NCBI GenBank assembly: GCA_003450815.1
Contig: DMES01000037.1
Coordinates: 831 to 64,830 of the forward strand
DNA: 64,000 nt
Direction: 5' to 3'
Source: Elusimicrobiota bacterium
GTDB taxonomy: Bacteria > Elusimicrobiota > Elusimicrobia > Elusimicrobiales > UBA9959
A program made the translations under genes and the position numbers. Shown here one piece after another: positions 27,931-62,480 of the stretch; position 1 is the first letter of the stretch, and the number at the start of each line of letters is the position of its first letter. The notes below the pieces were generated by a model, which saw only the letters and a program-made list of their open reading frames with translations, was not told where the DNA came from and made no database searches.

Positions 27931-28033
27931 ATGGAGAGATTGCAGTGATAAAACAACGATTGCGGTGATATGGCGGAGATCATAGTAATTTCTTAATCGC
28001 TGTCATCGCTTCCCCTATCACCGTAAGCTCCTC

Positions 28034-36529: not shown

Positions 36530-36536
36530 AAATTTT

Positions 36537-36869: not shown

Positions 36870-36927
36870 TGCTTTTTTCCGGCGCTTTGCTCTTGTTTGA
36901 ATAGCTGATGGATGTTTAAAAAATCCG

Positions 36928-37056
36928 ATGGCGCAGACGTATGTGTGGCGCCATAACGAGTGGAAAGGCGGTCGTCTGGCGGCTCAGTACGCTGTCAAAA
37001 ACGGCTTTAAATTGGAAAGCCTTATATCTTACAATTATCCCCCCCGCATCTTTTGA
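36928..37056 (+). CDS. candidate 42-aa small ORF coupled to the following radical SAM gene
   Basis: Below the track's size cutoff. [42 protein letters not shown]. Its TGA abuts ATG 37057 (TGAATG), and 37057 has no SD of its own. The sORF has no SD either. Confidence 0.3.
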
Positions 37057-38157: not shown

Positions 38158-38220
38158 ATGCCGCAAACGGCGGGTTGCAGGATGTCTCAAAAATAAAAAA
38201 AATCTTTTCCATTGAAATAT

Positions 38221-39624: not shown

Positions 39625-39636
39625 ATTCCCGTCACT

Positions 39637-40680
39637 ATGATAAAATCTAGGTATATGAAGGCAAAAGCTCTTTCCTACAGGCAGGCTGCGGCGCGTTTCG
39701 GCTGGCCGGCAGGGCGGATGAAAATTTGCGAACTAACGCTCGGCTACTCCTGTAACGCCCGCTGCGTGTTCTGCTACAGTTCGCCGGAGCTTGAAAACTG
39801 GAAAGAGCGTCCGTCCATGGATTTAAGGCGGGCGGGGGAGCATTTGCTGGCTTCCTATAAAAATGGCGCCCGCATGCTACAGATTATAGGCGGCGAGCCC
39901 ACCATAAACGAAGACCTTCCCCGCGTAATAAGTCTGGCCAAACGCACAGGTTACCTGGCGGTGCAGATAGTGTCAAATGGCCTTAAGCTTGCGGACGAGG
40001 ATTTTGTTAAAACGCTTGTAAAATCAGGCTTGAATACCGCCAATCTTTCTATCCACGGCCCTGACCGCGTCACCCACGACGCGGTAGTGGGGGTTGAGGG
40101 GGCTTTTGAAAGCACTCTTAAAGCGGCGCGCAATTTAATAGATGCCGGGGTTTACATCAACACCGGCACAGCCGTCACAGGCATTAATTACCGTAAAATT
40201 CCGGCCCTGGCCGCTTTTGTTCTGCGTGAGCTGGGAGTGGATTCCTGCCACATTATAGCCGCGCATTACCTTGGAGCGGCCTTCAAAAGGCGCAGGGCCC
40301 TGCGTGTTACTTACACTGAACAGATGCCGTATATTAAGAAGGCTGTGGCGGCCTTCCGCTTGGCGTATGTGAGGCCGGCTTTCGCTTTCCTAAGCAATTA
40401 TCTGCCCTGTGTGCTGCCCGGCTACGAGGCCCTGATGGGCGACTGGAAGTATCCTGAGGCTGACGACGACCTGTATCTGCCGGAAGCCAGTCACGAAGGA
40501 CGGATGTACACGATGATAACCGAAACTCTGCGCATGAAGTCTCCTTACTGCAAGCGGTGTGTTTATTGTGGCGTCTGCGCCGGTTTTGAAAAAACATATT
40601 TTGAAATGTTTGGCGGCGGGGAATTTGTTCCGCTTCTTGAGAAACCGGATGTTTACCCACTGAAGCCGGTGTGCGTATGA
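39637..40680 (+). CDS. radical SAM protein, compact CX2CX5C family
   Basis: 347 aa. Has CNARCVFC, IIGGEPT, LPCVLPGYEALM, and the C-terminal CKRCVYCGVCAGFEKTYFEMFGGGEFVP. Confidence 0.8.
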   Translation: MIKSRYMKAKALSYRQAAARFGWPAGRMKICELTLGYSCNARCVFCYSSPELENWKERPSMDLRRAGEHLLASYKNGARMLQIIGGEPTINEDLPRVISLAKRTGYLAVQIVSNGLKLADEDFVKTLVKSGLNTANLSIHGPDRVTHDAVVGVEGAFESTLKAARNLIDAGVYINTGTAVTGINYRKIPALAAFVLRELGVDSCHIIAAHYLGAAFKRRRALRVTYTEQMPYIKKAVAAFRLAYVRPAFAFLSNYLPCVLPGYEALMGDWKYPEADDDLYLPEASHEGRMYTMITETLRMKSPYCKRCVYCGVCAGFEKTYFEMFGGGEFVPLLEKPDVYPLKPVCV

Positions 40681-40736
40681 GTTGTACTAGGGTGAAATTT
40701 CTTCTTAATTTTTACCGGTCAGGCGTGATCTGAAGT

Positions 40737-41582
40737 ATGAAAATGCAGGTGGGGATAGGCTCTTTCAGGGAATTGGATTACTTTCTGGCCGCGGGCGCCG
40801 GGGAGTTCTACTGCGGCCTTGATAAAATACCAAGCCATGTTGAGGGCGCGTGTAATTTCGGGAGTTTGGACGATATCCTGACGGCCGCAAGGCTGGTCCA
40901 TGCCGCAGGCGGAAAAATGTTTTTTGCCGCCAACGAGGTTCATGCTTCTCTGCTGGAAGAGACCGGGTGCGTTATAAGAGAACTGGCGAACGGCGGCATA
41001 GACGGCGTGATAATAAAAGATCTAGCCCTGCTGGACCTGCTTAAGCGCCGCGGCATTAAGACCGCTTATATTCTCAGCACTCTTTCATGCTGCATGAACG
41101 CCGCCACGCTGGCCGTTTACCGCGGATACGGGGTTAAGCGGCTCGCTCTGCCCGAGCAGCTTAACCCGGCCGAAACCCGCGAACTGGTGTGTAATTCCTG
41201 GGGTATAGTCTCCGAGGTCTTTCTGAAAGCTCGGGAATGCTGCAGGAATTTCAACGGCCTCTGTTTCCTGGACTGCCACGGAAAACAATCCAACACCTGC
41301 GGGAAGAGCTTCCGCCGTGAAGGCGGCGGTGTTTTTCGGATGCCGGGCTTTTCCCCGGAGGAACATATGGCCCAGCTGCATGACTATTACCATATGGGCG
41401 TGGGAGTGCTGAAAGTGGGGCGCTCTCCCAGACCCGAAACCTCGCGGCTGGTTTTTAAGGAGGCGCTGCTGCTTCTGGATCTATTGAAATCAGGTTTGGG
41501 CCGTAAAGCCTTTACAGGTGAAGCCTTGCGCGTACATACTGTCTTTGACAAGGCTTATCGTCACCTTATAGAGAGAGTCTGA
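40737..41582 (+). CDS. peptidase-U32-family protein
   Basis: 281 aa. Has AGAGEFYCG, GIDGVIIKDLALL, RLALPEQLNPAETREL, and the Cys cluster ECCRNFNGLCFLDCHG..TCG. It is paralogous to 26974..27930. Confidence 0.7.
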   Translation: MKMQVGIGSFRELDYFLAAGAGEFYCGLDKIPSHVEGACNFGSLDDILTAARLVHAAGGKMFFAANEVHASLLEETGCVIRELANGGIDGVIIKDLALLDLLKRRGIKTAYILSTLSCCMNAATLAVYRGYGVKRLALPEQLNPAETRELVCNSWGIVSEVFLKARECCRNFNGLCFLDCHGKQSNTCGKSFRREGGGVFRMPGFSPEEHMAQLHDYYHMGVGVLKVGRSPRPETSRLVFKEALLLLDLLKSGLGRKAFTGEALRVHTVFDKAYRHLIERV

Positions 41583-42278
41583 ATGGAATTAGCCGTGCTG
41601 CTTACTCCCGAAGAGGCCCGCGCCGCGGGCCCCGGCTTGTTTAAAAGGTATTCCAGGGCTTATGTCGGAAGCGGGTTCTGCCAGAACCTCCTGCCGGAAG
41701 CGCGGGATATAGGCATGCTTCATTCAAAAGGCGCTAAAACCATTACACTGGCAACTCCGCTGTTTACCGGCGCCGGCCTGAAAAAATTCGAAAAAATCCT
41801 GAAAGCGGTGCTGGAAACGGAAAAAAGGATTGAGGTTTCGGTAAATGATTTGGGTTTGCTGGCCTTGCTGCGACGGCGCTACCGCGCGCGGGTGACGCCG
41901 CTGCTCGGCAGGCCGGTCTCGCATGATTATCTCCGCATGGAGCCGTCTTTTTTGAAACGGTTTTTGCGGTATTACGGCGTGAAATACCTTGAAAGCGACG
42001 AAAATTCCATGGTGCGCAATCTTCCGGCTTCGTCAAAACTGGCAGTGTCTTTTCATTACCCGCTTGCCTGCCTAGCCATGAGCCGTTTTTGCCCGCACGA
42101 GGGCCGTATGGACGACAGTTGCGCTCGGTCCTGCGCGGTAGGCCCTGTAAAACTGGAAGACGCCTGCGGAGAACAGCTGATTTTAAAGAACGGCGCGTAT
42201 TTTGCAGGGAATACGCCCTGCCGTCACAAGGCTGTAAAGCGTCTGGTTTACGCTCCGGGCGGTTCACTTAAGCTTTAG
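41583..42278 (+). CDS. U32-like partner protein
   Basis: 231 aa. Its ATG directly abuts the upstream stop. YVGSGFCQNLLPE, VSVNDLGLLALL and the Cys cluster SRFCPHEG..DSCARSC are paralogous to 26150..26971. Confidence 0.6.
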   Translation: MELAVLLTPEEARAAGPGLFKRYSRAYVGSGFCQNLLPEARDIGMLHSKGAKTITLATPLFTGAGLKKFEKILKAVLETEKRIEVSVNDLGLLALLRRRYRARVTPLLGRPVSHDYLRMEPSFLKRFLRYYGVKYLESDENSMVRNLPASSKLAVSFHYPLACLAMSRFCPHEGRMDDSCARSCAVGPVKLEDACGEQLILKNGAYFAGNTPCRHKAVKRLVYAPGGSLKL

Positions 42279-42314
42279 AAGCCTGTCCGGCATAAAGAAA
42301 AGAATTATTAAAAA

Positions 42315-43220
42315 ATGAAAAGAGTTGATATAAAAATAGGCTTCAACTGCAATAACCGCTGCGATTTCTGCGCGCAGGGGGACAAGCGTTACAAGAGCAA
42401 ACAAAAATCCCTGACAGAAATAAAACAAATTCTTCGGACCGCCCGCGCCTCCGGAGTGAGCGGGGTGGTTTTTACCGGCGGCGAACCCACGCTGCACCCC
42501 GGCCTTATAGATGCCGTAAAGGCCGCCCGCGCCATGGGGTATGTCAGCGTGCAGGTGCAGACCAACGGGCGGCATTTTGCCTATTACGATTACTGCGCGG
42601 GGCTTAAATCCGCCGGGGTCACTGAAATGGGGCCCTCGCTTCACGGCTCCAGCCCTGAAATTCATGAGGGCCTGACCAACGCCCCGGGAAGTTTTAGCGA
42701 GGTGGTTAAAGGCATACTCAATTGCAAGCGACTCGGGATGTATGTGTTGACCAATTCCGTGATTACAAAAAAAAATTACAAAGATTTGCCCGCGCTTGCT
42801 AAATTGCTCTTATATCTTAAGGTCGATCAGTATCAGCTGGCTTTTATTCATATAATAGGCACGGCTCTTGAAAACCGTGCCGGGATAGTGCCCCTAAAAA
42901 GCGACGCTATGCCGTTTATCCGCCGCGCCCTTGACGCTGGTATAAAAAAAGGCGTGCCCTGCTACACCGAAGCCATACCCTTTTGCCTGATGAAAGGGTA
43001 TGAGCGGTGCGTGGCCGAACGGATAATTCCTGAAGGGCCTGTAGCCGATGCCGGCATTTACGTTAAAAGTTACGGCGATTGGCGCCGCAACCAGGGCAAG
43101 CTCAAGCGAAAAGAGTGCCGGAGCTGCCGCTGGTTTGCGATCTGCGAGGGGCCCTGGCGGGAATATCCTGGGTTATACGGCTGGGATGAATTTGTGCCGG
43201 TCAAGAATAAAGCCGGTTAA
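42315..43220 (+). CDS. radical SAM protein, compact CX2CX5C family
   Basis: 301 aa. Has CNNRCDFC, FTGGEPTL, IPFCLMKGYERC, and CRSCRWFAICEGPWREYPGLYGWDEFVP. Confidence 0.8.
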   Translation: MKRVDIKIGFNCNNRCDFCAQGDKRYKSKQKSLTEIKQILRTARASGVSGVVFTGGEPTLHPGLIDAVKAARAMGYVSVQVQTNGRHFAYYDYCAGLKSAGVTEMGPSLHGSSPEIHEGLTNAPGSFSEVVKGILNCKRLGMYVLTNSVITKKNYKDLPALAKLLLYLKVDQYQLAFIHIIGTALENRAGIVPLKSDAMPFIRRALDAGIKKGVPCYTEAIPFCLMKGYERCVAERIIPEGPVADAGIYVKSYGDWRRNQGKLKRKECRSCRWFAICEGPWREYPGLYGWDEFVPVKNKAG

Positions 43221-43314
43221 AGCGATCCCGTTTAGCTGGATATTGAAAATGAATATAATGAACTATACCGGACTTATACCGAAGGCGGCTTGGCACGGGT
43301 TTTCTGCATAATCA

Positions 43315-44250
43315 ATGTCTGAAACCGGAATTTACGAATGTTATCTTACATACAGGTGCAATCAGCGCTGCACATTTTGCTTTGTGTCGGAGGCGGAGCG
43401 CGCGGTCGGAGCGCCAATCGGTTTCAAAAGCATAATAGGCAAAATTTACAAAATGAGAAAGGCCGGCTGCGATGACCTGCGGCTACTGGGGGGGGAACCG
43501 GCCATGTATCCGGATATAACCGGAGTATGCGCGGCTGCCTCAAAGATCGGTTATAAGAGCATAACTATTTTCACCAATGGAACCTGTTTTGCCGGCAATG
43601 AGCTCGCCAGTCAACTGAAGAAATACGGGCTTGACAGGGCGAATGTAAGTATTCATTCGCACAAGCCGGAAGTCCACGACAAGATAACCGGGGTGAAGGG
43701 TTCTTTTTACAGGATGCTTTCCGGTCTGGACAGCCTCCGACGCGCCGGAGTGAGGATTAGCTTTATCTGTGTGGTGAATTTCCTCAATGCCACAGAACTC
43801 AACAGGACGACGGCTTTTTTTCTGAACAAGGGCATTTCCGGATTCACTTTCTTTTTCACAAAATATCAGGGACGGATGGTTGAAGAGCCTACCAGGTCTG
43901 ATAAACTTTCCATCAGCATGTCCGAAGCGGCGGCCGTGGTGAAAAAAGCTCTCGGAGTATTCAGGCGCCATAAAATGCCATTGCCCGGGCTGGAACATTT
44001 TCTTCCGTGCGTTCTTCCAGGCTATGTACGGCTGATGACCGATTATTTTCCGGCAGAGGCTGGAAAACCGGACACTGGCTATCTGGTGCATCCGGATGGT
44101 ATTACGGCCCGAGTGTATGCCACAGCATATAAAGGCCGCAGATGGCTTGAAACCTGTTCCCGCTGCAGATTTCGGCGGGGCTGCTGCGGGATAGATCCCG
44201 GATATCTGGCTAAATTCGGTTCGCGGGAGTTTAAGCCGGTAAAAAAATGA
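43315..44250 (+). CDS. radical SAM protein, compact CX2CX5C family
   Basis: 311 aa. Has CNQRCTFC, LLGGEPAM, LPCVLPGYVRLM, and CSRCRFRRGCCGIDPGYLAKFGSREFKP. Confidence 0.8.
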   Translation: MSETGIYECYLTYRCNQRCTFCFVSEAERAVGAPIGFKSIIGKIYKMRKAGCDDLRLLGGEPAMYPDITGVCAAASKIGYKSITIFTNGTCFAGNELASQLKKYGLDRANVSIHSHKPEVHDKITGVKGSFYRMLSGLDSLRRAGVRISFICVVNFLNATELNRTTAFFLNKGISGFTFFFTKYQGRMVEEPTRSDKLSISMSEAAAVVKKALGVFRRHKMPLPGLEHFLPCVLPGYVRLMTDYFPAEAGKPDTGYLVHPDGITARVYATAYKGRRWLETCSRCRFRRGCCGIDPGYLAKFGSREFKPVKK

Positions 44251-45671
44251 AAAAAACCATGTCGCTTATGCCTTTTGGTTTTGCGCCGGTTACCGGAGGG
44301 GTGTTGGTTTCCAACGACTTCGGCGGCTGGCTGGTTCTGGACGGAAGGGAGTTCAGGAGCCTGAAAGACGGAAGCTTTGCGCGCAAGAAAGGGCTTTGCG
44401 CCAAACTTGCACGGCGCGGTTTTATAAAAGAGCGGCTTGATTTTGAAAGCCTCGGGCAGGATATGGGCGGACTTCACAGGCACAGTTTCGGCGGCCCGAG
44501 CCTGCACATACTTGTGGTAACGCTGAAGTGCAACCACGCCTGCGTTTATTGCAGGGCGGTAAAAGCCGGCGGGTTTGAAAAAGCCGTGATGAGTCTTGAG
44601 ACCGCCAAAAAAAGCATAGACATGGCCTTTTCCTCACCGAATAAAAATATCGTTATTGAGTTCCAGGGCGGCGAGGCGCTCATAAACTGGCCGGTAGTCA
44701 GGAACGCCATTCTTTACGCCCGGAAGAAAAACACGGCATACGACAAAAACCTTGAAATTTCGGTTGTAACGAATCTTAGCCTGATGGACGAGGAAAAATT
44801 TTCTTTCCTTACCGGTCACGGCGCCGGGGTATGCGCCTCTCTTGACGGCCCCGCTTTTTTGCACGACGCCAACCGGCGCTACGCTGGAGGCTCTTCGCAT
44901 GAAAAGACCTTGTATTGGCTGAAAAAAGCGCTTTCCTTGAAACATGGCGGGGAAAAAGACTCGCTCCCTTCGGCTCTAATGACGGCCACAAAGCTTTCAC
45001 TGAAGTATCCGGAAGAAATTGTTGAAACTTACCGCAAGATCGGGCTGGGCGGTATATTTCTGCGTCCGCTATCGCCGATAGGCTTCGCGCGGTCTGTTTG
45101 GGGCGATATCGGCTATAAGTCTGAGGAATTCGGTTCTTTTTACCGTTCGGCGCTTGAACATATTCTCAGGCTGAACCGGCGCGGCGAGCGTTTTGTGGAG
45201 CGCAATGCCGCCATAGTGGCCCGGAAAGCGCTTAAAAAAGAAGACCCCAACTTTCTGGATCTGCGTTCTCCGTGCGGAGGAGCCATTGGACAGCTAGCCT
45301 ATAACTGGGATGGCGGGGTTTACACCTGCGACGAAGGCAGGATGGCAGGTTTCGGCCGGGACGATTTTTTCAGGCTCGGCAGCGTTTACAAAAACTCTTA
45401 TCAGGAAATAATCAGCGCTCCCGCGGCCAGAGTTTGCGCTTTGGCTTCCTGTCTAGAAAACCAGAGCGCCTGCTCGCGCTGCGCGTGGAAGCCTTTTTGC
45501 GGAGTTTGTCCCGTGTATAATTATGAAACCCAGGGGTCTCCGTGGGGAGATATAGTCACCGGGGACTGGTGTAAAATACAAAAAGGCATTTTCTCGGCGG
45601 TTTTTGACGCCTTGTCAAAACCCTCCAGCCGTAAGATTATAGAGGGCTGGCTGGACACAACGGATAGGTAG
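44247..45671 (+). CDS. radical SAM/SPASM peptide maturase, HxsB-like (copy 3)
   Basis: 474 aa. ATGA overlap with the upstream gene. Has ..VLVSNDFGGWLVLDGREFRSL.., CNHACVYC, EFQGGEALIN, and CGGAIGQLAYNWDGGVYTCDEG..ACSRCAWKPFCGVCPVYN. Confidence 0.7.
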   Translation: MKKTMSLMPFGFAPVTGGVLVSNDFGGWLVLDGREFRSLKDGSFARKKGLCAKLARRGFIKERLDFESLGQDMGGLHRHSFGGPSLHILVVTLKCNHACVYCRAVKAGGFEKAVMSLETAKKSIDMAFSSPNKNIVIEFQGGEALINWPVVRNAILYARKKNTAYDKNLEISVVTNLSLMDEEKFSFLTGHGAGVCASLDGPAFLHDANRRYAGGSSHEKTLYWLKKALSLKHGGEKDSLPSALMTATKLSLKYPEEIVETYRKIGLGGIFLRPLSPIGFARSVWGDIGYKSEEFGSFYRSALEHILRLNRRGERFVERNAAIVARKALKKEDPNFLDLRSPCGGAIGQLAYNWDGGVYTCDEGRMAGFGRDDFFRLGSVYKNSYQEIISAPAARVCALASCLENQSACSRCAWKPFCGVCPVYNYETQGSPWGDIVTGDWCKIQKGIFSAVFDALSKPSSRKIIEGWLDTTDR

Positions 45672-45803
45672 ATAGGCTGTAGGCAGTTAGCCTGTGGGAG
45701 GAAATTTTTCGCGGTCATGCGAAGTGTAGAGCGTTCTGGGCGCCTTGGTCGGTTAATGCGTAACGACTAACAGCCTTCAGTCTATAGCGTAAACAACCTA
45801 TTT

Positions 45804-46691
45804 ATGCCTGATATATCTTTTTGGAACAAATGCAACAGCAAGTGCGTGATGTGTACAAACATGGCTTCTTTTTCCTCGCAGGACAGCTCGCAGTACGGCT
45901 TGAAGAGGCAGATACGGAAAATGGAAAGCTATCTGAAGGGGGAGAGCGTATATTTCAAGAACGCAGACAAATCCGATTTTTTAAGCCTTACCGGCGGCGA
46001 GCCCACCTTACACCCCGATTTTTTCCAGCTGCTCGCCTATTTCAGGCGGAGGCTTGCCGGGACGCCCATCAGGCTTCTGACAAACGGAAGGACGCTTGCT
46101 GATACCGGGTTTACCGCTAAATTGCTGAAAACAGCCGGTCCTCCTTTCTGTTTTATAATTCCTCTGCATGGCTCCGGCCCCTCTCTGCACGATAAGGTCG
46201 CCGGAGTGAAAGGCTGTTTTATGCAGACCATGAAAGGGCTGGAGAACCTGTTTTCCATGGCCGGCGGCAGGGATATAGAAATACGCGTTGTTCTTCATAA
46301 GTTGAACGCCGTGGCTTTGCCTGACATCCTGAAACTTCTGCTTAAAAAATTCCCCCGCACTTCCCGCTACCGCGTGGTAGTTATACACTATGAGATAGAG
46401 GGGGAGTCGGAAAGAAACCACCCCCTGCTGGCGTTACGGTTTAAAAATTCTGTCCGGGCCGTGCGCGCCTGCGTGCGCCTTCTGCCAAAATTCGCGCATC
46501 TTGAGCTTTATCATTTTCCACTTTGTGTTCTTCCGCCGTCTTTGCGTGCCCTGGCCCGCGTCACCCTGCCCCGCGCGGACAGAATATATCCGCCCTCAAA
46601 ATGCGGCCGCTGCGCGCTCAAAGCAAAATGCCTGGGGCTTATGCGTGCATACCACAAAAAATTCGGGGCCTCGGAGCTGAAAACTATATGA
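45804..46691 (+). CDS. radical SAM protein, compact CX2CX5C family
   Basis: 295 aa. Has CNSKCVMC, LTGGEPTL, FPLCVLPPSL, and CGRCALKAKCLGLMRAYHKKFGASEL. Confidence 0.8.
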   Translation: MPDISFWNKCNSKCVMCTNMASFSSQDSSQYGLKRQIRKMESYLKGESVYFKNADKSDFLSLTGGEPTLHPDFFQLLAYFRRRLAGTPIRLLTNGRTLADTGFTAKLLKTAGPPFCFIIPLHGSGPSLHDKVAGVKGCFMQTMKGLENLFSMAGGRDIEIRVVLHKLNAVALPDILKLLLKKFPRTSRYRVVVIHYEIEGESERNHPLLALRFKNSVRAVRACVRLLPKFAHLELYHFPLCVLPPSLRALARVTLPRADRIYPPSKCGRCALKAKCLGLMRAYHKKFGASELKTI

Positions 46692-47839
46692 AACCGGTCT
46701 CTCTTTCCTTTCTTGCGGTTTTGGTTCTTTGGGCGGTTTCCGTGGTAAGCGCCGATATCGCCACTAATAAAATAACCAACCGGAAAATTATTCTGGGCGC
46801 GAAAATACTTTTGGGGGCGTGCATTGCCCAGGCTTTCGTTACGTATCTCGGTTACAAAGGGGATACCCCCGTCTTTTTGCTGTGGGAGTTTTATCCAATG
46901 CTGGCGCGTCACGCGCTGTGGTCGGCGCTGGCCGGCATTATCTTGTGGTACGCTGAAATATGGCCTGCAGGAGACGCCAAATTTTTTATTCTTGTTTCGG
47001 CTTCATTGCCTGTTGTTAATTCGCAGATCCGGAATTTTCCGAATTATCTTTTTCTCTCCCTGCTTGTGAATATTTTCGTTCTCGCCTCCATTTTCGCGGT
47101 GTGCGGGTTTATTTCTTCAGGTATGCGCTCCGCTTCGCCCGGGGATTTTTTAAGCGGACTTTGGACGGATATGCGAAAAAGGTTGTCATCTCTCGGATCT
47201 GGAAAAAGCCGTCTGACAGCCCTGGCATACCTGTTTAATATGATTTTTGTCTTTCTCATGCAGCAGATATTCGCGTTTGAGGCCGCCGGGGCGTTAGGCA
47301 GGCTGTTTTCACGCGTGGAAGTCCTTTATTTCTTTATTTTTATACTTTGGGGTAAGATAGGCGGAGTTTTCAAAGGCCGGCGCCTGTTTTACCTTACAAC
47401 CTGCTGTTACCTTGTGTATTTTTTTGCCGGTTATTTCTTTTTCTATGACCGCCTGGCGCTCATGATAATCACGGCCATAGTCAATGTGCTTAAATTCAGC
47501 CTGCTTTTGTTTTTCGGGCGTTTCATGCTTGAATTCCTGATGGAAAAAAAGGATCTGATCTATGTGGGCGCTGAGGAGCTCTCGCCGGGCATGGTGCTTT
47601 CTTCAAAAGAGAGCGCAAGGCTTAAGGCGAACCCCGTTTTTGAGGGCGCCTTTGATGATTCTTTCAGAGACGGGCTTGTGGCGGAACAGGTGGAACTCCT
47701 GAGAAGCTGGCTTAAAAAGCTGCCGCTTGAGAATGCCAAAATGGAAATGGTCAAAGGCCGGCCTTTCGCTCTTTGGATATCCGCGGGCGCCGCCATTTCG
47801 CTGCTGTTTGACAGAAATCTGGTGCATCTTCTGAAATGA
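46688..47839 (+). CDS. polytopic membrane protein with A24 (prepilin/TadV-type) aspartyl peptidase motifs
   Basis: ATGA overlap at 46688; the track's upstream extension runs inside the previous gene. SADIATNKITN matches D-x5-IPN, WPAGDAKFF matches GGGDAKL, and KGRPFALWISAGAAISL matches the PFGP-type motif. Extra helices and a ~90-aa soluble insert are present. Confidence 0.55.
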   Translation: MKPVSLSFLAVLVLWAVSVVSADIATNKITNRKIILGAKILLGACIAQAFVTYLGYKGDTPVFLLWEFYPMLARHALWSALAGIILWYAEIWPAGDAKFFILVSASLPVVNSQIRNFPNYLFLSLLVNIFVLASIFAVCGFISSGMRSASPGDFLSGLWTDMRKRLSSLGSGKSRLTALAYLFNMIFVFLMQQIFAFEAAGALGRLFSRVEVLYFFIFILWGKIGGVFKGRRLFYLTTCCYLVYFFAGYFFFYDRLALMIITAIVNVLKFSLLLFFGRFMLEFLMEKKDLIYVGAEELSPGMVLSSKESARLKANPVFEGAFDDSFRDGLVAEQVELLRSWLKKLPLENAKMEMVKGRPFALWISAGAAISLLFDRNLVHLLK

Positions 47840-48765
47840 AAAAGAAAATAGCGAAGAAGCTCAAAATTGTGGTTTTTACCGGCTACGCCTGCAATAATAA
47901 CTGCCGGTTCTGCATTGCCGCCGATAAGCGTCTGCTGCCCCAGAAAACCACGGCGGAGCTTTCGCGTGAAATTTATCAGGCGCGCAATAAGGGCGCGCAA
48001 ATACTTGAAATCATAGGCGGCGAGGCCACGATAAGAAAAGACTTCTCTCACATGGTTTCTCTCGCCAAAAAGATAGGCATTCCTGAGGTTATATGCGCCA
48101 CCAACGGCCGTGTGTTCTCGGATTTAAGCCGCGCGCGCGAAATAGTGGAGGCGGGAATGGATACCCTTGTTTTTTCCGTGCACGGCGCCAAAGCGGCCGT
48201 GCATGACGCTTTGACCCGAAGCCCCGGCAGTTTCAGCGAGTTGTGCCGCGGCCTGGAAAACTTAAAAAAAATCGGGTTCTCGAACATAAATGGCAATACG
48301 GCCGTTGTAAAAACCAATATGCGCGGGCTGCCGGAGATAGCAGGGTTTTACGCGGAACATAAAGTGCGCAATGTAGAATACATTTTCGTCGATTCAAATT
48401 CCGGCGGTGCCAATAATAATTTTTTTGAGCTTGTTCCCCATATTTCAAAAGCCGCGCCTTTCATGAGGCGGGCTCTGGAGATAGGGCTTAAGGCCGGTTT
48501 TGGACAGTGGAAAGTGCGTTATGTGCCCCTTTGCCATTTTACCGGCTATGAGGCTCAGATAAGCGAAATCAACGAGAAGGCTCTTTTTCTTACCGAGCAT
48601 TGGGCGCCCGATTTTAAAAACCTCGATGTGGTAAAATCCAGAGCCGCTGTCGGCCGGAGAAAAACTGAAAAGTGCCTTGGCTGCCGGCTTTACGGAACTT
48701 GCGAAGGTATTTGGGTGGAATATCTTAAAAACTACGGAGACGAAGAGCTGCATCCGGTACAATAA
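47836..48765 (+). CDS. radical SAM protein, compact CX2CX5C family
   Basis: 309 aa. ATGA overlap. Has CNNNCRFC, IIGGEATI, VPLCHFTGYEAQI, and CLGCRLYGTCEGIWVEYLKNYGDEELHP. Confidence 0.8.
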   Translation: MKKKIAKKLKIVVFTGYACNNNCRFCIAADKRLLPQKTTAELSREIYQARNKGAQILEIIGGEATIRKDFSHMVSLAKKIGIPEVICATNGRVFSDLSRAREIVEAGMDTLVFSVHGAKAAVHDALTRSPGSFSELCRGLENLKKIGFSNINGNTAVVKTNMRGLPEIAGFYAEHKVRNVEYIFVDSNSGGANNNFFELVPHISKAAPFMRRALEIGLKAGFGQWKVRYVPLCHFTGYEAQISEINEKALFLTEHWAPDFKNLDVVKSRAAVGRRKTEKCLGCRLYGTCEGIWVEYLKNYGDEELHPVQ

Positions 48766-49839
48766 ATGCGCGCGCCAAACCATCTTGTGATATACCTGAG
48801 CGGCAGATGCAATCTTGCCTGCGTTTACTGCTATGCCAGGTTTAAAGGCGCGCCCATAAGCCGTAAACGCCTTCTGGCCGCTTTGGACATTTTTTTTAAA
48901 AACGGCATTACAGGAAAAAAAATTACTTTTTTAGGCGGAGAGCCCGCGCTGCATCCCGCCCTGCTGAAGGCGGCGGTTTTAAGAGCGCGCCTGAAGGCCG
49001 GACGGGATTTGCCGATACAGGTTTTCACCAACGGCACCATGCTCACCCGGTCTCTTTTAAACTTTTTGTCCGGCCGGGGGGTGAAGATTGTTCTCAGCCT
49101 TGACGGGCCCGCGTCCGAAACCGACCTTAACAGGCGCTTCAAGGCCGGCGGCGGCTCGGTTTTTTCCTCGGCGGTCAAAAATGCGGGGAACAGGGAAAAT
49201 ATTGTCGTGAGCATGGTTGTTACTCCGCAAAGCGCCTTAAGGCTGGCGGAAAACATTGAGAGCCTGCTGGCCCTTGGGTTTAAAAGGCTTGCCTGGGCGC
49301 CTGACATCTCCACCCTTTGGAATCAGCGCTCGCTGGCGGAGCTGAAAAAATCGGCGCTGAAAGCTAAGGCCGGCTACTTCAAGGCTTTAAGAAGCGGCGG
49401 CCGGATTTACGAGATAGCCAATATATATGAAATACTTAAGCTTGCGCGCGGCGGCGGCAAGCTGCCCGGCTGCATGAATATAACGCTTGGCCCGGATGGA
49501 TTCTTTTATCCTTGCGATAAAATTTTTGCCGGAGGGCTTGACCGCATAAAGCGTTTCAGGGTTGGGGCCGATGGAACCGGGAGAGAAAAATTTTTTCGCT
49601 TCGCCTCCGCCCTCGGGGCCGGCTCAAAGCAGGTACTGTGCGCTGTGGCGCCCTGGGCGCTGCGCCATTTCTCTCCGGGAGGCCCTGGGCCTCAGGACGC
49701 GGCGGCGCTTAAGCGGCAATACCAGGCGCGCAAGACGGTTCTGGCCTGGCTTGAAGGGATGGCCGTAGAAGGTTGTAAATATCCGGCTTTCCGTTCGGTG
49801 CATGGTTTAAAAAGCTGTAGTCGCCAAAAAATCAGATAA
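48766..49839 (+). CDS. radical SAM protein with partial SPASM/twitch region
   Basis: 357 aa. Its start abuts the previous TAA. Has CNLACVYC, FLGGEPAL, and GCMNITLGPDGFFYPCD. Confidence 0.75.
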   Translation: MRAPNHLVIYLSGRCNLACVYCYARFKGAPISRKRLLAALDIFFKNGITGKKITFLGGEPALHPALLKAAVLRARLKAGRDLPIQVFTNGTMLTRSLLNFLSGRGVKIVLSLDGPASETDLNRRFKAGGGSVFSSAVKNAGNRENIVVSMVVTPQSALRLAENIESLLALGFKRLAWAPDISTLWNQRSLAELKKSALKAKAGYFKALRSGGRIYEIANIYEILKLARGGGKLPGCMNITLGPDGFFYPCDKIFAGGLDRIKRFRVGADGTGREKFFRFASALGAGSKQVLCAVAPWALRHFSPGGPGPQDAAALKRQYQARKTVLAWLEGMAVEGCKYPAFRSVHGLKSCSRQKIR

Positions 49840-49877
49840 AGCTGATTTTTTGGGACTTTTTAAGTTAAAATCAAAAT

Positions 49878-51140
49878 ATGGAGCCGAAAAATAATAATAA
49901 GTGTTACGAACTTATACTGAATTATAACTGTAACGCGCGTTGTCTGTTTTGCTCGCAGGGCTCCTTTGATAAGTCTCTTAACGCCGATTTTAAGCTGACG
50001 GCTGAAAACATCTACGGGGCGTATAAAAGCGGATACAGGCGCCTGGGGCTTACCGGCGGAGAGCCGCTTATCCGGACTGACATCCTGAAAGTTATCTCGC
50101 TCGCCAGGTCTGTCGGATTTAATTTTATCAGGGTTCAGACCAACGGTATAAAACTCTCCGACCCGGCTTTCTGCCGTCGCCTGGCGGGCGCCGGGCTTAC
50201 TTTCTGCAAATTATCGCTGACCTCTGACAGGCCGGCCGAACATGACCGCCTGCTGGGGGTAAGCGGCGCCTGGGAATCCGCCGTTCGGGGCGCCAAAACC
50301 CTGCGCAAACTAAAAATACGCCTTGGCAATAATATTCTGATAAATGCCCTGAATTATAAGCGGCTGCCGGAAATAATCCGGTCATTTCTGGAATTGGGAA
50401 TAACAAACTTTGTGGTTATTTACCCGGTTTATATCGGCAGCATGGCTTCGCATTCGGCCGAGCTGGGTGTGAGCCTGGGAGAATGCGAAAAATATTTTGC
50501 CGAAGCCGCCGACCTTATGGACAAATCCGGGCTGGCGGGCGAAATTCTTTTTTTGAATGTGCCGCCCTGCTTTTTGAAAGGCCGCGAGTCTTTAGCCATA
50601 GGGCTGGATCTTTTTAATACGGTGGTTACAGACCCGGCGGGAGGAAAAAACGATCTGGATGTCACCGCCAACCGGGCCAAGGTGCGCGCTCCCGCCTGCC
50701 GGTATTGTTCTCTCAGGCGTCGCTGCGCGGGGGTGGACGCCCATTATGCGGAGATATTGGGCTTTGACGGTTTTAAGCCGGTCCTTAAACCCCGCCTCGC
50801 GCAAGGCGCCGTTCGCGAAACACCGCGCGTATTCTTTTCCGATAACGAACTTTGCCTTATTGAAATACTTAAAAAAGAAAATCCTTCCTCCACCGCGAGG
50901 GTTTTAAAACTGGCAAAAAACATCGTCCTTTGCCGGGACTGCTCCGACGGCAACTCTGTGCTGAACGCCGCGCAAAGCCTTGTAAAAAAAGGCCTTGTTG
51001 AAAGCGTCTTTGAGCGCGGGCATTATTACTGGAGGCTCATCAAGAGCACAGGAGAGCGGGTCACAGGTCACAAGTCACAAGTCACAAGTTACAAGAGCAT
51101 AAGAGTACAGAAAAATAATGTCGCGGGAGAAGAAGACTGA
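49878..51140 (+). CDS. radical SAM protein (compact CX2CX5C family) fused to a C-terminal winged-helix-like domain
   Basis: 420 aa. Has CNARCLFC, LTGGEPLI, PPCFLKGRESL, and CRYCSLRRRCAGVDAHYAEILGFDGFKP. A ~90-aa domain follows (..NELCLIEILKKENPSSTARVLKLA..AAQSLVKKGLVESVFERGHYYWRL), then a tail encoded by GTCACAAG word repeats. Confidence 0.75.
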   Translation: MEPKNNNKCYELILNYNCNARCLFCSQGSFDKSLNADFKLTAENIYGAYKSGYRRLGLTGGEPLIRTDILKVISLARSVGFNFIRVQTNGIKLSDPAFCRRLAGAGLTFCKLSLTSDRPAEHDRLLGVSGAWESAVRGAKTLRKLKIRLGNNILINALNYKRLPEIIRSFLELGITNFVVIYPVYIGSMASHSAELGVSLGECEKYFAEAADLMDKSGLAGEILFLNVPPCFLKGRESLAIGLDLFNTVVTDPAGGKNDLDVTANRAKVRAPACRYCSLRRRCAGVDAHYAEILGFDGFKPVLKPRLAQGAVRETPRVFFSDNELCLIEILKKENPSSTARVLKLAKNIVLCRDCSDGNSVLNAAQSLVKKGLVESVFERGHYYWRLIKSTGERVTGHKSQVTSYKSIRVQKNNVAGEED

Positions 51141-52033
51141 TGGCTCTCTTGCGTCTGTTTGCCAAGTGCTGCCAGAAATGCGTTTTCTGCTCATATCCCC
51201 GGGAAAAGGAAAGCGGCCGCGCGGCTGAGGAAAAACTTTCGTATTGGCTTAAGTCCGCCGCCGCCGTGAAAGCCCCGCTTATACAGATTTCAGGCGGGGA
51301 GCCGTTGCTGGCCGAGCCTTACGATCTGCTCAAGCTTGCGGCCTTCTGCGCGCGGTTGGGCCGCCGGGTGGAGATCCAGACCAACGCTTCCGGCATTTCG
51401 GGCAGGTTTTCCGAGACGGAACTACAAAAACTGATTAAAATAATTTCCGGGAGCGGCGGCTACTTTAATATTAATTTTTCCGCCGATACTCCCGGGAGCG
51501 ACCTTAAAATTACCCGGACACGCGGCGCTTTTGCCCGGCGCCTTGAAACGGTTAAAAAAATGCTTTCACAGGGCGCGAGCGTGCGTCTGACTTTTGTGAT
51601 CACTAAGCTCAATTACCGGCGCCTTGAAAAATTCGGTTTTTTTGTCGTAAAAGAGTTGAAAGGGGTGTCCTGGGTCCAATTCAGTTTTGTAAAGGGGAGC
51701 GGCCGTGCGGCTTTTGCGAAGAAAATAGTCCCGCGATACGCTATGGCCGCTCCGTATCTGCGCCGTGCGCTTGCGGTTTGCGGGGCCGCCGGTCTTAAGT
51801 GCGAGGTGGATCATATCCCGCCATGTTTTCTCGGTGAGTATTACCGCTGCCATGTGGATATCGGGAAAATGAAGCTTGGTTCGCCAGGGCCTCATTTGGC
51901 CGAGAAAGAGAAACTGACAGAGTGCCTCGGCTGCGGGCTTTACAGTGGTTGTTCAGGCCCCAGGAAAGATTATATAGCCATTTACCCCGGTGCCGGCCTT
52001 ACTGGCGCCGGGATTTACGGCGGATTAAAATGA
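51140..52033 (+). CDS. radical SAM protein, compact family (divergent)
   Basis: 297 aa. TGATG overlap. Has CCQKCVFC, ISGGEPLL, IPPCFLGEYYRC, and CLGCGLYSGCSGPRKDY. Confidence 0.7.
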   Translation: MALLRLFAKCCQKCVFCSYPREKESGRAAEEKLSYWLKSAAAVKAPLIQISGGEPLLAEPYDLLKLAAFCARLGRRVEIQTNASGISGRFSETELQKLIKIISGSGGYFNINFSADTPGSDLKITRTRGAFARRLETVKKMLSQGASVRLTFVITKLNYRRLEKFGFFVVKELKGVSWVQFSFVKGSGRAAFAKKIVPRYAMAAPYLRRALAVCGAAGLKCEVDHIPPCFLGEYYRCHVDIGKMKLGSPGPHLAEKEKLTECLGCGLYSGCSGPRKDYIAIYPGAGLTGAGIYGGLK

Positions 52034-53280
52034 AAAAAATGAATACTGCGTTTGAAAAAGAATTCCCCGCGCTTGGGAGTAACTTCGGCGGCAAAAAGCT
52101 GGTTTACCTTGACAGCGCCTGTACCGCGCTTAAGATGCGGACGGCCGCCGCCGCCCATTCGGAGTTCTTGCTTGAAAGCGGTTTTTGCGGCGGCAGGCGT
52201 TCAGCCCATCTGCCGGCGGTGGCGGTGGAAGAGGCGTTCTTTGAAGCCAGGAGGACAGTGGCGGGTTTTATAGGCGCGGCCCGGGCGGAGGAGATAATCT
52301 TCACGGCTGGGACCACGGACGCGTTTAATTTGTTCCTGTCTTCGTTCCCATTTGAGGGGTCCAGAAAGGAAGTGATTGTTTCTCCGCTTGAGCATAATGC
52401 TGTTTTTCTGCCGCTTTTAAATATGTCAAAGCGCGGCGGGATCCGGCTCAGGGTTATCCCGCTCAGGAACTGGGCGCCTGATCTTTCCGCGTACCGGAAA
52501 CTTTTATCCGCGAAGACGGCTTTGGTATGCCTCAACCGCGCCTCTAATATTTTTGGCGGCGTCACTGACACCGCCCCGTTCGCGCGGCTGGCCAGGGAGG
52601 CGGGGGCTAAAGTGTTTTTGGATGAAGCGCAATATCTGCCCACGCACGCGGAAAATGTCCGCTCCGCCGGGGCCGACGCCTGCGCTTTTTCCGGTCATAA
52701 ACTGGGCGCGCCTTTCGGCACAGGCGCTCTTTATGTCGAACGCTCGCTGATGGAACGACTTGTGCACGGCAAAGTGGGCGGGGGCACTGTGCGTGAAGTT
52801 TCAAGAACGCCCGGCGGCTTTTGCGCGGAGTATTTGAGCGGCTACCAGGGTTTTGAGCCGGGGGTGCAGAATTACGCCGGCGCAGTGGCGCTGGCCGCGG
52901 CAATTAACGCCCTCTCAAAAACTGGAATGCCCGCTATACGGACCCGCGTGGAAGAACTTGTTTCCTATGGTCTTAAAAAGTTTTCGCGGGCGAAGGCCGT
53001 GCGCGTAGTCGGCGACCGGACCCGGCTGAAACTCGGATCTATAATCCCGCTGGTTCCAGCGGCCCCCGGGTTTTCCACGGTTGATTTTAACCTTTACCTG
53101 AACCACGGGGTGAGGGGCAGGGTTATCGCTTTGCGCACGGGCCGGCATTGCGCGGATCTGGCCGCTTTAACATCAGGTACGGACGATATCATCCGCTTGT
53201 CTTTTTTTGTCTATAACAGCAGGGCTGACATAGACGCTTTTGCCGAAGCCCTTGAGGAATACGCGTCCTGCCTCGGCTGA
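52030..53280 (+). CDS. class-V aminotransferase / cysteine desulfurase (SufS/CsdA-like)
   Basis: ATGA overlap with the last rSAM gene. Has YLDSACTAL, the PLP-lysine context FSGHKLGAPFGTGALYV, and the active-site Cys context RTGRHCADL. Confidence 0.75.
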   Translation: MKKMNTAFEKEFPALGSNFGGKKLVYLDSACTALKMRTAAAAHSEFLLESGFCGGRRSAHLPAVAVEEAFFEARRTVAGFIGAARAEEIIFTAGTTDAFNLFLSSFPFEGSRKEVIVSPLEHNAVFLPLLNMSKRGGIRLRVIPLRNWAPDLSAYRKLLSAKTALVCLNRASNIFGGVTDTAPFARLAREAGAKVFLDEAQYLPTHAENVRSAGADACAFSGHKLGAPFGTGALYVERSLMERLVHGKVGGGTVREVSRTPGGFCAEYLSGYQGFEPGVQNYAGAVALAAAINALSKTGMPAIRTRVEELVSYGLKKFSRAKAVRVVGDRTRLKLGSIIPLVPAAPGFSTVDFNLYLNHGVRGRVIALRTGRHCADLAALTSGTDDIIRLSFFVYNSRADIDAFAEALEEYASCLG

Positions 53281-53327: not shown

Positions 53328-54518
53328 ATGAAAGACCTGAACGCCATAAACGAAAAAATCTTAAGCTATAAAAAAGATATGACCGCTTTTGCCAGGGATA
53401 TGATCCGGATTCCCAGCTTTTCCACTAAAGAAGGCAAATTGGTGGCTAGGATAAAAAAAGAGATGTTGAGGGTAGGTTTTGACAGGGTTAAGGTGGACGG
53501 GGTGGGCAATATCATCGGTTTCATAGGCGGCGGAAAAAAGAAAATAATGATAGATGCTCATATAGATACCGTAGGCGTTGGCGACCGGTCCGCCTGGAAA
53601 ATAGACCCGTTTGCCGGCGTGATTAAGAATGATGTCATCTACGGCAGGGGCGCTACCGACCAGAAACTTTCAATGGTTTCAATGGTGTATGCCGGCAAGG
53701 CCATAAAAGAGCTGGGACTTGAGGGCGGGTATACTTTTATGGCTGTGGGTTCAGTTATGGAGGAAGACTGCGACGGGTTGCCGCTTCTGCACCTTATAAA
53801 CAAGGAAAAAATAAGGCCGGACTTTGTGGTGCTGACCGAACCCACGAACCTGGCCGTTTACCGCGGGCACAGGGGCCGTATGGAAATTAAAGTGGTAACC
53901 AAGGGCCGCTCCTGCCACGCCTCGGCGCCGGAGCGAGGCGATAACGCCGTGGTCAAAATGTCCGAAATAGTAAAAGAGATAACCGCCCTTAACCCGAAGC
54001 TTAAAAAAGACAGATTTCTGGGCAAAGGCACCGTTGCAGTCACCTGCATAGAATGCAAGACGCCGTCTTTGAACGCCGTGCCGGACGAATGCACTATTTA
54101 TCTGGACCGCCGCCTTACTGTGGGGGAAACTTTAAAATCTTCCGTGGCCGAGATAAAACGCCTTGGAACGGTTAAAAAATACGGAGCCGAAGTGGAAGTG
54201 CTTTATTACAACGCCGTCGCCTGGACAGGCCTTAAAGTGGGGCAGGAAAAATATTTTCCCACCTGGGTTTTGCCGGAAGCTCATCAACTGGTGCAGGCGG
54301 GAGTAAAGGCCGGTATAACGGCGCTTGGCAAAAAGCCTGTGGTGGATAAATGGGTATTTTCCACCAATGGCGTGGCCACGGCCGGCCGCCTTGGCATTCC
54401 TACTATAGGGTTCGGCCCTTCAAACGAGATATATGCCCACACCGTCAACGAGAACATGCCGGTGGGGGATTTGCTGAAAGCCGCTGTGTTCTACGCGGCA
54501 ATACCGCAGTATCTTTAA
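53328..54518 (+). CDS. ygeY: YgeY-family M20 metallohydrolase
   Basis: 396 aa. Has FARDMIRIPSFSTKEG, DAHIDTVGVGDRSAWKIDPF, and GRGATDQK. It lies directly upstream of ygeW. Confidence 0.8.
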   Translation: MKDLNAINEKILSYKKDMTAFARDMIRIPSFSTKEGKLVARIKKEMLRVGFDRVKVDGVGNIIGFIGGGKKKIMIDAHIDTVGVGDRSAWKIDPFAGVIKNDVIYGRGATDQKLSMVSMVYAGKAIKELGLEGGYTFMAVGSVMEEDCDGLPLLHLINKEKIRPDFVVLTEPTNLAVYRGHRGRMEIKVVTKGRSCHASAPERGDNAVVKMSEIVKEITALNPKLKKDRFLGKGTVAVTCIECKTPSLNAVPDECTIYLDRRLTVGETLKSSVAEIKRLGTVKKYGAEVEVLYYNAVAWTGLKVGQEKYFPTWVLPEAHQLVQAGVKAGITALGKKPVVDKWVFSTNGVATAGRLGIPTIGFGPSNEIYAHTVNENMPVGDLLKAAVFYAAIPQYL

Positions 54519-54586
54519 TCAATAAGGGGCGGAAAAGTAAAACAACAACGGTCCCGCTCATTATTGTAAACGCCTGGAGGTAAAAA

Positions 54587-55777: not shown

Positions 55778-55824
55778 GTTTGGTAAACGGACAGGCTCCT
55801 AAAGGCATCCGCCCCCGATTCTTT

Positions 55825-57656: not shown

Positions 57657-57785
57657 TCATAGCGTAAACGCTATGATTGCTATAGGCCATCTGCCGGAGG
57701 CCATAAACCAGAAGGAAACTCCTAAAAAAGCATATGGCGTACGGCTTAGGGCTTATGGCATATATTGTAATATAACAAGGACGTT

Positions 57786-62302: not shown

Positions 62303-62480
62303 GTGTAGCCTCCTATGATTCTTACTTTCGTATATTATGCACTAAAGCGTAGTTTTTGACAAAGGTCCTAAGTCCCGGCGCGCTTGGGCCTTTTGGTCCA
62401 GCCGTTCCCGGGACTTTGGAGGCTTGACATGTAAAGGGCATCTGCTATACTATAAGCGTCCGGGTTTCCAAGGAGGATTT

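Follow-up and report, generated by a model that had tools for sequence, protein, structure and literature searches.

What is a membrane protein with the motifs of a prepilin peptidase doing in the middle of a large cluster of radical S-adenosylmethionine (radical-SAM) genes? The question is raised by a 64,000-nucleotide stretch of an Elusimicrobiota genome from a groundwater metagenome (GenBank assembly GCA_003450815.1, contig DMES01000037.1, positions 831 to 64,830; hereafter, the window), in which the gene that we call A24L (window positions 46688-47839, plus strand) encodes a protein of 383 amino acids that is identical to the database entry "MAG TPA hypothetical protein DCL44_04925". Our reading is that A24L, an extended TadV-like membrane peptidase of the A24 family, is a dedicated leader peptidase of this cluster, for which we infer the His-Xaa-Ser peptide precursor HxsA4 (36537-36869, plus strand, 110 amino acids) as the substrate and the bond after Gly21 as the cut site; we give this reading a probability of roughly 55%. 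Prepilin peptidases mature pilins, pseudopilins, and archaellins and, in archaea, some binding proteins. Since the leader of HxsA4 is pilin-like, A24L probably removes that leader.

The open reading frame (ORF) of A24L runs from the ATG at 46688 to the TGA at 47839, and its start Met is common to all homologues. An initial annotation, made from the letters of the window, had noted that it overlaps both radical-SAM neighbors by ATGA, and the sequence at the two ORF ends bears this out: the overlap is 46688-46691 with the HxsC-like gene upstream and 47836-47839 with the radical-SAM gene downstream. The same annotation had picked out three A24-type motifs, all of which are present and, being kept across homologues, are not there by chance: SADIATNKITN (residues 21-31), which holds Asp23 (codon 46754-46756); WPAGDAKFF (residues 92-100), which holds Asp96 (codon 46973-46975); and KGRPFALWISAGAAISL (residues 356-372), which includes K-G-R-P-F-A-L-W-I-S-A-G. 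The first had been compared to a D-x5-IPN context, a description that suits the family consensus, D-x-A-T-x-K-I-P-N, but not this copy, which has T for P. The estimate that the protein is about twice the usual TadV size was right, the real TadV proteins that we used having 179 and 183 amino acids. The AT skew drops to -0.17 in the 46- to 48-kb bin, against ~0 elsewhere, as expected because the gene is rich in hydrophobic codons.

The case for an A24 peptidase is made by the relatives of A24L. A word-indexed search found 133 of them, nearly all ~383 to 392 amino acids long and from Elusimicrobia, including two that bear the NCBI name "prepilin peptidase". Two alignments were used, A1 with 29 homologues at 35 to 65% identity and A2 with 47 representatives at 20 to 42%, the latter from an unbiased hidden Markov model (HMM) scan. 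With members scanned singly, the A24 family model PF01478 was matched by 12 of the 29 close members (E<=1; best 4.4e-6) and by 17 of the 47 distant ones (E<=0.01; best 1.6e-6), together 29/76, and these matches cover model positions 2-100 of 104 and fall at residues ~11-135; P0108 is the sole member above the gathering score (27.5 versus 26.5 bits). No other Pfam family recurs among the scanned members. In A1, D23, W92-F99, G357, F360, W363, I364, and G367 are invariant, as are F322, D324, D328, G329, and W341 in a soluble domain near the C-terminus; in A2, this is true of D23, W92, A94, D96, K98, N128, G329, and F360. Thus, both of the Asp residues on which the initial annotation had staked its proposal are conserved in orthologues, down to 20% identity. 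Among the copies found in the genomic loci described below, D23 is present in 155/155 and N31 in 153/155, neither residue being part of the pattern used for retrieval; the conservation of D96 in that set is circular because the loci were retrieved by the pattern WPAGDAK.

The family is large and poorly annotated. In an exhaustive search of 1.84 billion representatives (50% clustering), the family HMM found 941 proteins at E<=1e-3, of which 414 reach E<=1e-10. Among the top 150, almost every full-length protein aligns along the entire profile, which means that the members have the long architecture in common. For most of the listed members, no Pfam domain is precomputed, and the name is "hypothetical protein" or missing altogether. 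No scanned member matches PF06750, and the protein begins directly with transmembrane (TM) helix 1, i.e., without the N-terminal methyltransferase/DiS-P-DiS domain. TadV likewise lacks a methylation domain (PMC10191384). We have little doubt that A24L is a divergent homologue of the A24 family.

Which type of A24 enzyme does it resemble? As comparators, we used two TadV peptidases adjoining Flp pilin genes, from Ralstonia and Burkholderia, and, for the PilD/GspO type, Escherichia coli GspO and 120 proteins retrieved as GspO relatives; a wider TadV set from the plasmid collection held eight closely related Burkholderia/Paraburkholderia matches, so no deep TadV profile was built. Against 16,688 background sequences, the top two non-family matches of the core profile were the TadV proteins of Burkholderia (18.7 bits, E 0.0013) and Ralstonia (14.9 bits, E 0.02), while the next non-family score was 7.3 bits and the best PilD/GspO-type protein reached 4.6 bits. 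On Ralstonia TadV, the family profile aligns at positions 6-107, pairing D23 with the Asp in S-D-I-R-S-R-R-V-P-N and D96 with that in G-A-G-D-V-K-F-F; the Burkholderia protein is aligned over positions 13-70, which covers the first-Asp motif alone. The C-termini of the two TadV proteins, G-I-P-Y-A-A-Y-M-A-I-G and L-P-Y-G-V-A-I-A-A-G, correspond to G-R-P-F-A-L-W-I-S-A-G in A24L. A PilD/GspO-like identity was also considered and is ruled out by failed hhalign and HMM searches in both directions, the reverse HMM search with the PilD/GspO type giving no match; TadV-like is what the data support, and the label "TadV/CpaA-type" given at the outset therefore stands.

The likeness to TadV/CpaA (MEROPS A24B) extends from the missing N-terminal methyltransferase domain to the context of both Asp residues, the first lying in D-I-x-x-R/K-R/K-I/V-P-N at the end of TM1 and the second in A-G-D-A/V-K-F/L, to the P-F/Y-A/G motif within the last helix, and to the leader of the putative A24L substrate, which ends in F-L-x-x-E-x-G as in Flp prepilins. 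However, A24L is twice as big, with four added TM helices and a ~70-residue cytoplasmic domain before the last helix; it sits amid radical-SAM genes, the window and the related loci being devoid of flp, tad, rcp, and cpa genes; and in its putative substrate, A-T-A-I-E-Y gives way to a polar spacer and the pilin body to His-Xaa-Ser repeats. The norm for TadV is ~140 to 185 amino acids and a place beside flp/tad/cpa assembly genes, and a protein of 383 amino acids with a 207-residue insertion departs from it. By size and surroundings, then, A24L is TadV-like but not an ordinary member of the TadV group. With its catalytic residues intact, A24L is probably a catalytically competent aspartyl membrane peptidase, and the known form nearest to it is the short TadV/CpaA type, whose task is to mature Flp pilins.

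Predicted structure and topology show where these motifs lie. The full-length AlphaFold model (pLDDT 82.4, pTM 0.76) has five helices (residues 2-149), an amphipathic helix, four membrane helices (173-288), an alpha/beta domain (289-356), and a final helix (361-382). The five-helix part would be the A24 catalytic core (residues 1-149; 46688-47134, plus strand, as for all parts of the gene), as indicated by the PF01478 matches in relatives, the Ralstonia TadV alignment, and a separate model of residues 1-150 (pLDDT 93.2). The best PDB TM-score of this core model, by far, is to FlaK (3s0x), at 0.52 over 145 columns. The archaeal GxGD peptidases FlaK and PibD (PDB 3S0X) may resemble A24L in the fold of the five-helix core, and FlaK also has a soluble domain; they differ in showing no detectable sequence match, and A24L is bacterial and has another insertion architecture. 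The substrates of PibD go beyond pilins and include sugar-binding proteins (Szabo et al. 2007, as cited in PMC10191384). When the full-length model was used in Foldseek, the matches were unrelated helical proteins only, and FlaK came up with the truncated core alone.

AlphaFold helices, hydropathy, and the positive-inside rule put D23 at the predicted cytoplasmic end of TM1 and D96 at the predicted cytoplasmic start of TM4, in agreement with the expectation that both Asp residues face the cytoplasm. By the positive-inside rule, the R-K-R helix, the K-G-R-R loop, and the domain of residues 289-356 are predicted to be cytoplasmic as well. The added 207 residues take the place of the last cytoplasmic loop of TadV. 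They consist of a family-specific insertion (residues 150-288; 47135-47551), seen in the model and in hydropathy as the amphipathic R-K-R helix and four TM helices, conserved in the family and missing from the 179- to 183-residue TadV proteins, and of the predicted cytoplasmic domain (residues 289-356; 47552-47755), modeled as beta strands and short helices. This soluble domain carries a conserved F-D-D-x-F-K/R-D-G-L-x-x-E-Q motif and has no Pfam or PDB match. The extra helices and the soluble insert that had been noted from the sequence are both present in the model, but the insert has ~68 to 73 residues (residues 289-356 in AlphaFold) rather than ~90. The gene closes with the last TM helix and the stop codon (47756-47839), where G-R-P-F-A-L-W-I-x-x-G is the counterpart of the A24 P-F/Y-G/A motif.

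Does A24L belong to the cluster in which it lies? The observation that the window holds no tad, pil, or secretin genes was correct and applies to all 64 kb. Beyond the window, we considered 70 loci from species-level genomes (69 Elusimicrobia, including a few metagenome-assembled genomes [MAGs] labelled "bacterium", and one Omnitrophota) and 80 metagenome loci. Among the 92 with >=2.5 kb on both sides of the peptidase gene, both immediate neighbors are radical-SAM genes in 70 and at least one is in 84; there is a median of 7 radical-SAM-like ORFs per 20-kb locus. The commonest gene order is that of the window, HxsC-like, peptidase, HxsC4-like, with an HxsC-like upstream neighbor in 61/92 and an HxsC4-like downstream neighbor in 66/92. 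Other arrangements exist: in one clade (L053, L056, L058, L061, L062), the peptidase gene lies just after the HxsA4 sub-cluster; in L163, it is immediately upstream of HxsD-HxsB-HxsA4; and in L170, it and HxsA4 are 5.5 kb apart and divergently transcribed. That the linkage outlasts so much rearrangement argues for a shared function, and we are confident that A24L is dedicated to the radical-SAM/Hxs system and is not a pilus gene.

The candidate substrate is the HxsA4 precursor, which scores 57.3 bits with NF038313 (cut-off 55). In the window, its basic leader of 21 residues, which ends in F-L-N-S-E-E-G, is followed by six polar spacer residues, a hydrophobic segment, and 12 HxS repeats, and its C-terminus is GGWC; the codon of Gly21 is 36597-36599. 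An alignment of 23 diverse HxsA4-type precursors shows a net-basic leader of 15 to 30 residues that ends in F-L-x-x-E-E-G, L16 and G21 being invariant and F15, E19, and E20 nearly so. The spacer that follows usually has six polar residues (range 5-11; K-x-x-x-x-D/N). Next come ~15 hydrophobic residues rich in G-x-x-x-G, with the membrane helix put at ~21 residues, and then a short linker with A-x-A-like sites, H-x-N, and the His-Xaa-Ser repeats. The repeat number varies from ~7 to 22 between genomes (e.g., the precursors of L005, L028, and L035); a conserved H-x-N-Y/F precedes the repeats, and the C-terminus is a conserved R-G-G-W-C in Elusimicrobia or G-Q-W in Omnitrophota and others.

Real Flp prepilins, here from five plasmids, read R-F-L-K/R-D-E-x-G|A-T-A-I-E-Y-G-L-I-A-A-L-I-A, where the bar marks the cleavage after Gly (Tomich et al. 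2006, as cited in PMC10191384). When HxsA4 was compared with eight real Flp pilins by hhalign (E 2e-4), K-K-x-I-K-x-F-L-x-s-E-E-G fell on the Flp leader and Gly21 fell on the cleavage Gly; the HMM alignments are collinear through the hydrophobic segment, and the helix thus ends equally far from the Gly in HxsA4 and in Flp. With an Flp HMM, 17 of the 23 HxsA4 sequences score above the 95th percentile of composition-preserving shuffles, but the maxima are close, 7.6 versus 6.6 bits. On the strength of these alignments, the resemblance of the HxsA4 leader to that of Flp is real but weak. HxsA4 is probably the substrate of A24L; to cleavage after Gly21 specifically, we give slightly less than even odds.

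As a mechanism, we propose that HxsA4 would be made with a class III-like (Flp-like) signal, in which a basic cytoplasmic leader and F-L-x-x-E-E-G precede a helix of ~21 residues that would enter the membrane. The many HxsB- and HxsC-like enzymes of the cytoplasm would modify the His-Xaa-Ser repeats, and A24L, with Asp23 and Asp96 at the cytoplasmic face of the membrane, would cut after Gly21 and take the leader off. The acidic cytoplasmic domain (F-D-D-x-F-K-D-G-L-x-x-E-Q) may dock the basic, Lys-rich leader. The product would be anchored in the membrane by its hydrophobic helix or might be freed later at an A-x-A-like site. A bolder view, to which we again give slightly less than even odds, is that a Flp-prepilin/TadV pair was captured by a peptide modification pathway, the class III signal serving at the same time as the leader of a radical-SAM peptide and an enlarged TadV-like protease its dedicated peptidase and possibly its membrane gate.

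A number of results weigh against a dedicated leader peptidase of HxsA4, and they concern the enzyme, the linkage, and the substrate. The window protein itself has no PF01478 match in a Pfam scan, even at E 10, and no PDB sequence match, FlaK included, with either a single-sequence or a profile search. The PF01478 check proposed with the initial annotation is thus negative for this sequence and positive, over the full model, for a part of its relatives; we give these matches and the invariance of both Asp residues more weight than the missing one. In hhalign comparisons with E. coli GspO alone and with an alignment of 21 PilD/GspO-type sequences, nothing beyond the first-Asp motif was aligned, at negligible probability, and the FlaK match is a matter of TM-score alone, since its Foldseek E of 3.5 is non-significant. 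With respect to linkage, HxsA4 lies within 10 kb of the peptidase gene in only 25/159 sequences (158 loci and the window). In the window the distance is 10.15 kb, and in at least one case HxsA4 is on the same contig as the peptidase gene yet beyond 10 kb, P0126 and L044 having contigs of equal length (67,140 bases). Moreover, no peptidase gene was found within 10 kb in three precursor-centered loci, L159 and L162 (Omnitrophota-type) and L169 (Elusimicrobia), where the clusters exceed the fetched stretch; a 335-residue unannotated Omnitrophota protein in L159 was considered as a peptidase homologue and proved to be an unrelated soluble protein. The suggestion that the substrate is local, namely the Flp-like leader of the peptide encoded at 36537, is favored by the conserved Hxs linkage and by the position of Gly21 on the Flp cleavage Gly and limited by these three loci. 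As to the substrate, the hhalign probability for HxsA4 and Flp is 46%, a weak resemblance, the Pfam model Flp_Fap (PF04964) does not match the HxsA4 precursor, and the spacer is polar (K-x-x-x-x-D/N) where Flp has A-T-A-I-E-Y. A signal-peptidase-I-like A-x-A site lies past the hydrophobic segment of HxsA4, and so another enzyme could do the release. Radical-SAM modification in the cytoplasm and cleavage of a membrane-inserted substrate would also have to be put in order, a puzzle that has been noted for canonical HxsA as well (PMC13128918).

Finally, FLxxEEG could equally well be a recognition element for HxsB or HxsD, the constant flankers of the precursor, and this leads to the first of four rival explanations, in which A24L acts as an A24-type peptidase in the Hxs system but cuts HxsA4 elsewhere (e.g., at K-T-G|I-A-L, where the hydrophobic segment begins) or cuts another protein of the cluster, with FLxxEEG as a docking motif for HxsB/HxsD. 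HxsD and HxsB do flank HxsA4 in every locus, even without a nearby peptidase gene (the whole precursor-proximal module recurs in L159, L162, L163, L169, and L170), and just before the hydrophobic stretch, from whose core Gly21 is six polar residues away, a small residue (G, A, C, or S) takes up a second position. In archaeal class III signals, the cut falls immediately ahead of the hydrophobic stretch. However, this second position is unconserved (G, A, C, S, or T), whereas Gly21 is invariant and is aligned to the Flp cleavage Gly at the same distance from the helix end; and no further protein of the cluster combines a basic leader and a Gly with a hydrophobic N-terminus, given that an ordinary signal anchor is what the Cys-rich protein encoded upstream of HxsA4 has. 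We regard another cut or substrate as unlikely. Still less likely, in our judgment, is that A24L mainly serves the modified peptide or the radical-SAM enzymes as a membrane scaffold or exporter, with proteolysis secondary or lost and the added helices and domain forming a docking or translocation module. Residues 150-356, over half of the protein, are family-specific and have invariant residues of their own, and the cluster has no ABC or other exporter gene, all of which would suit such a role; the added part, on the other hand, resembles no known transporter (Pfam, Foldseek), and the strict retention of the catalytic Asp pair and the AGDAK and P-F-A motifs over wide divergence argues for retained catalysis.

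The remaining two alternatives question the assignment itself. A housekeeping prepilin peptidase, acting on type IV pilins or pseudopilins encoded elsewhere and placed in a radical-SAM cluster by accident, would be in keeping with the name that NCBI gave to two members, and Elusimicrobia do carry type IV pilus genes. Such an accident is hard to reconcile with the presence of the gene within radical-SAM clusters in nearly all of the ~150 loci, despite rearrangements and in a second phylum too, with the overlaps on both sides and no pilus genes nearby, or with a sequence that has no relation to the PilD/GspO type; we consider it very improbable. The most improbable case is that there is no A24 peptidase here at all and that the motifs are a chance resemblance in an unrelated polytopic membrane protein. 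It is for this case that the window protein's lack of Pfam, NCBIfam, and PDB sequence matches (the NCBIfam scan gave no significant match and two chance ones), the non-significant Foldseek E-values, and the failure of hhalign against the PilD type would speak. Set against them are 29 relatives that match PF01478 over the full model, with no other family recurrent; real TadV proteins as the top non-family matches, far above background, with both Asp motifs aligned in that of Ralstonia; and FlaK as the best TM-score.

How would a dedicated leader peptidase compare with what is known? The canonical HxsABCD (HXS) system of Proteobacteria was shown in 2026 to be an antiphage system, and its HxsA is N-terminally processed and exported, the cleavage requiring HxsB, HxsC, and HxsD and the protease being unidentified (PMC13128918). 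It has in common with the system described here a His-Xaa-Ser repeat protein matured by HxsB/HxsC radical-SAM enzymes with HxsD, since HxsB, HxsD, and an HxsA-type precursor are all present. In contrast, canonical HXS has four genes, with one HxsB, one HxsC, and no dedicated protease, whereas the window has three HxsB genes and ten further radical-SAM genes, mostly HxsC-like, plus the embedded A24-type peptidase; the precursor is also different, being short, of the HxsA4 type, and without a peptidoglycan-binding domain. PADLOC defence models detected nothing specific in our case, only a generic radical-SAM likeness to viperins. Membrane proteases that remove the leaders of modified peptides include EpeP (M50, for a radical-SAM epipeptide), MroQ (M79), and AgrB of the autoinducing peptide (AIP) (review, PMC10885120). 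Like the proposed A24L, they are integral membrane proteases, encoded in the cluster, that remove the leader of a modified peptide in a manner possibly coupled to export; unlike it, they are metallo- or cysteine proteases. That 2023 review of leader proteases describes serine, cysteine, and metallo enzymes and no aspartyl, A24, or prepilin-type one (PMC10885120).

The A24 protease family and the Hxs system are already known; what is new is that a TadV-like subfamily has been enlarged and, on our proposal, coupled to a radical-SAM substrate with a Flp-like leader. In the searchable literature, HxsA4 and HxsC4 are not mentioned and a prepilin or A24 peptidase is never tied to a radical-SAM peptide system, which is consistent with the claim, made from the window alone, that the pairing is undescribed. 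If our reading is true, A24L would bring an aspartyl or prepilin-type protease into the maturation of ribosomally made modified peptides for the first time and so add a protease class to that field, a pilin-type signal would have been reused outside filament assembly, and the way in which HxsA-type effectors are processed at the N-terminus and exported could be modeled concretely. Since the Elusimicrobia variant supplies both a candidate protease and an exact candidate cut site, the question of Hxs processing becomes directly testable. There is also an annotation gap, in that a family of 941 representatives includes a window protein without a Pfam or significant NCBIfam match.

The supercluster around A24L extends over ~33.3 to 53.3 kb and is entirely on the plus strand. 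It begins with a precursor-proximal module (33297-36529), made up of HxsD (33297-33785; PF27806 in precomputed annotation), HxsB (33748-35211), a second small HxsD-like gene (~35232-35516), and the Cys-rich exported protein (35513-36529), followed by HxsA4. The rest (37057-53280) comprises twelve further radical-SAM genes, of which two are HxsB paralogues, a U32 peptidase-like pair, and a SufS-like desulfurase. In all, the radical-SAM expansion (33748-52033) counts 13 genes in one co-directional cluster, three HxsB paralogues and ten others. The TIGR03978 scores of the HxsB proteins are 468 (for 33748-35211), 354, and 445 bits (cut-off 370). The curated cut-offs for HxsC and HxsC4 are not reached in the window, where the best scores are 154 versus 267.9 bits (TIGR03977) and 152 versus 500 bits (NF038332), and the paralogues are to be called HxsC-like only. 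This holds for the two genes that overlap A24L, the one upstream (45804-46691) being HxsC-like with 154 bits to TIGR03977 and the one downstream (47836-48765) HxsC4-like with 141 bits to NF038332. We also considered whether the cluster is the same as a radical-SAM cluster beside nitrogenase paralogues in groundwater Elusimicrobia (bioRxiv 10.1101/765248) and rejected this, there being no nif-like genes here.

Some other genes of the HxsA4 loci deserve mention. The Cys-rich protein (338 amino acids) directly upstream of HxsA4 has an N-terminal signal anchor and no Pfam match, and Cys-rich proteins of ~250 to 340 amino acids with the same kind of N-terminus adjoin HxsA4 in L159 (9231-9971), L162 (9213-9998), and L163 (10374-11174); HxsA4 systems thus seem to have a conserved partner that has gone unrecognised. 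In the same three loci, an unannotated ORF of 69 to 76 amino acids lies between HxsD and HxsB (L159, 7565-7774; L162, 7534-7743; L163, 8293-8523) and might be a further conserved component. The SufS-like cysteine desulfurase (52027-53280, plus strand) follows the last radical-SAM gene in most related loci and may be a source of sulfur, either for iron-sulfur clusters or for a modification. The U32 peptidase-like (UbiU-like) gene and its unannotated partner of ~230 to 275 amino acids occur in two copies, one inside the Hxs supercluster (40737-42278, plus strand) and the other in a separate radical-SAM/U32/partner triplet on the opposite strand (26150-28954, minus strand); such pairs recur in related loci at variable positions.

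Downstream of the supercluster (53328-59024, plus strand) are genes for YgeY (a selenium-metabolism-linked M20 hydrolase), YgeW (a knotted carbamoyltransferase), and poly-gamma-glutamate-hydrolase-like, amino-acid-kinase-like, and PALP-enzyme proteins; YgeY, and often YgeW too, is found downstream of the radical-SAM cluster in many related loci, including the distant L001, L021, and L049. Further along, ~15 kb from A24L, a clostripain-family (C11) cysteine peptidase of 515 amino acids (62424-63971, plus strand) is the sole other endopeptidase-type protease seen in the window; it was not noticed in related loci. Just upstream of the Hxs cluster are genes for a barnase-like ribonuclease and barstar (29238-30220, plus strand), the same pair being located upstream of HxsD in L169, and near the start of the window lies an insertion-sequence transposase pair (HTH_Tnp_1 and rve integrase; 2994-4132, minus strand).

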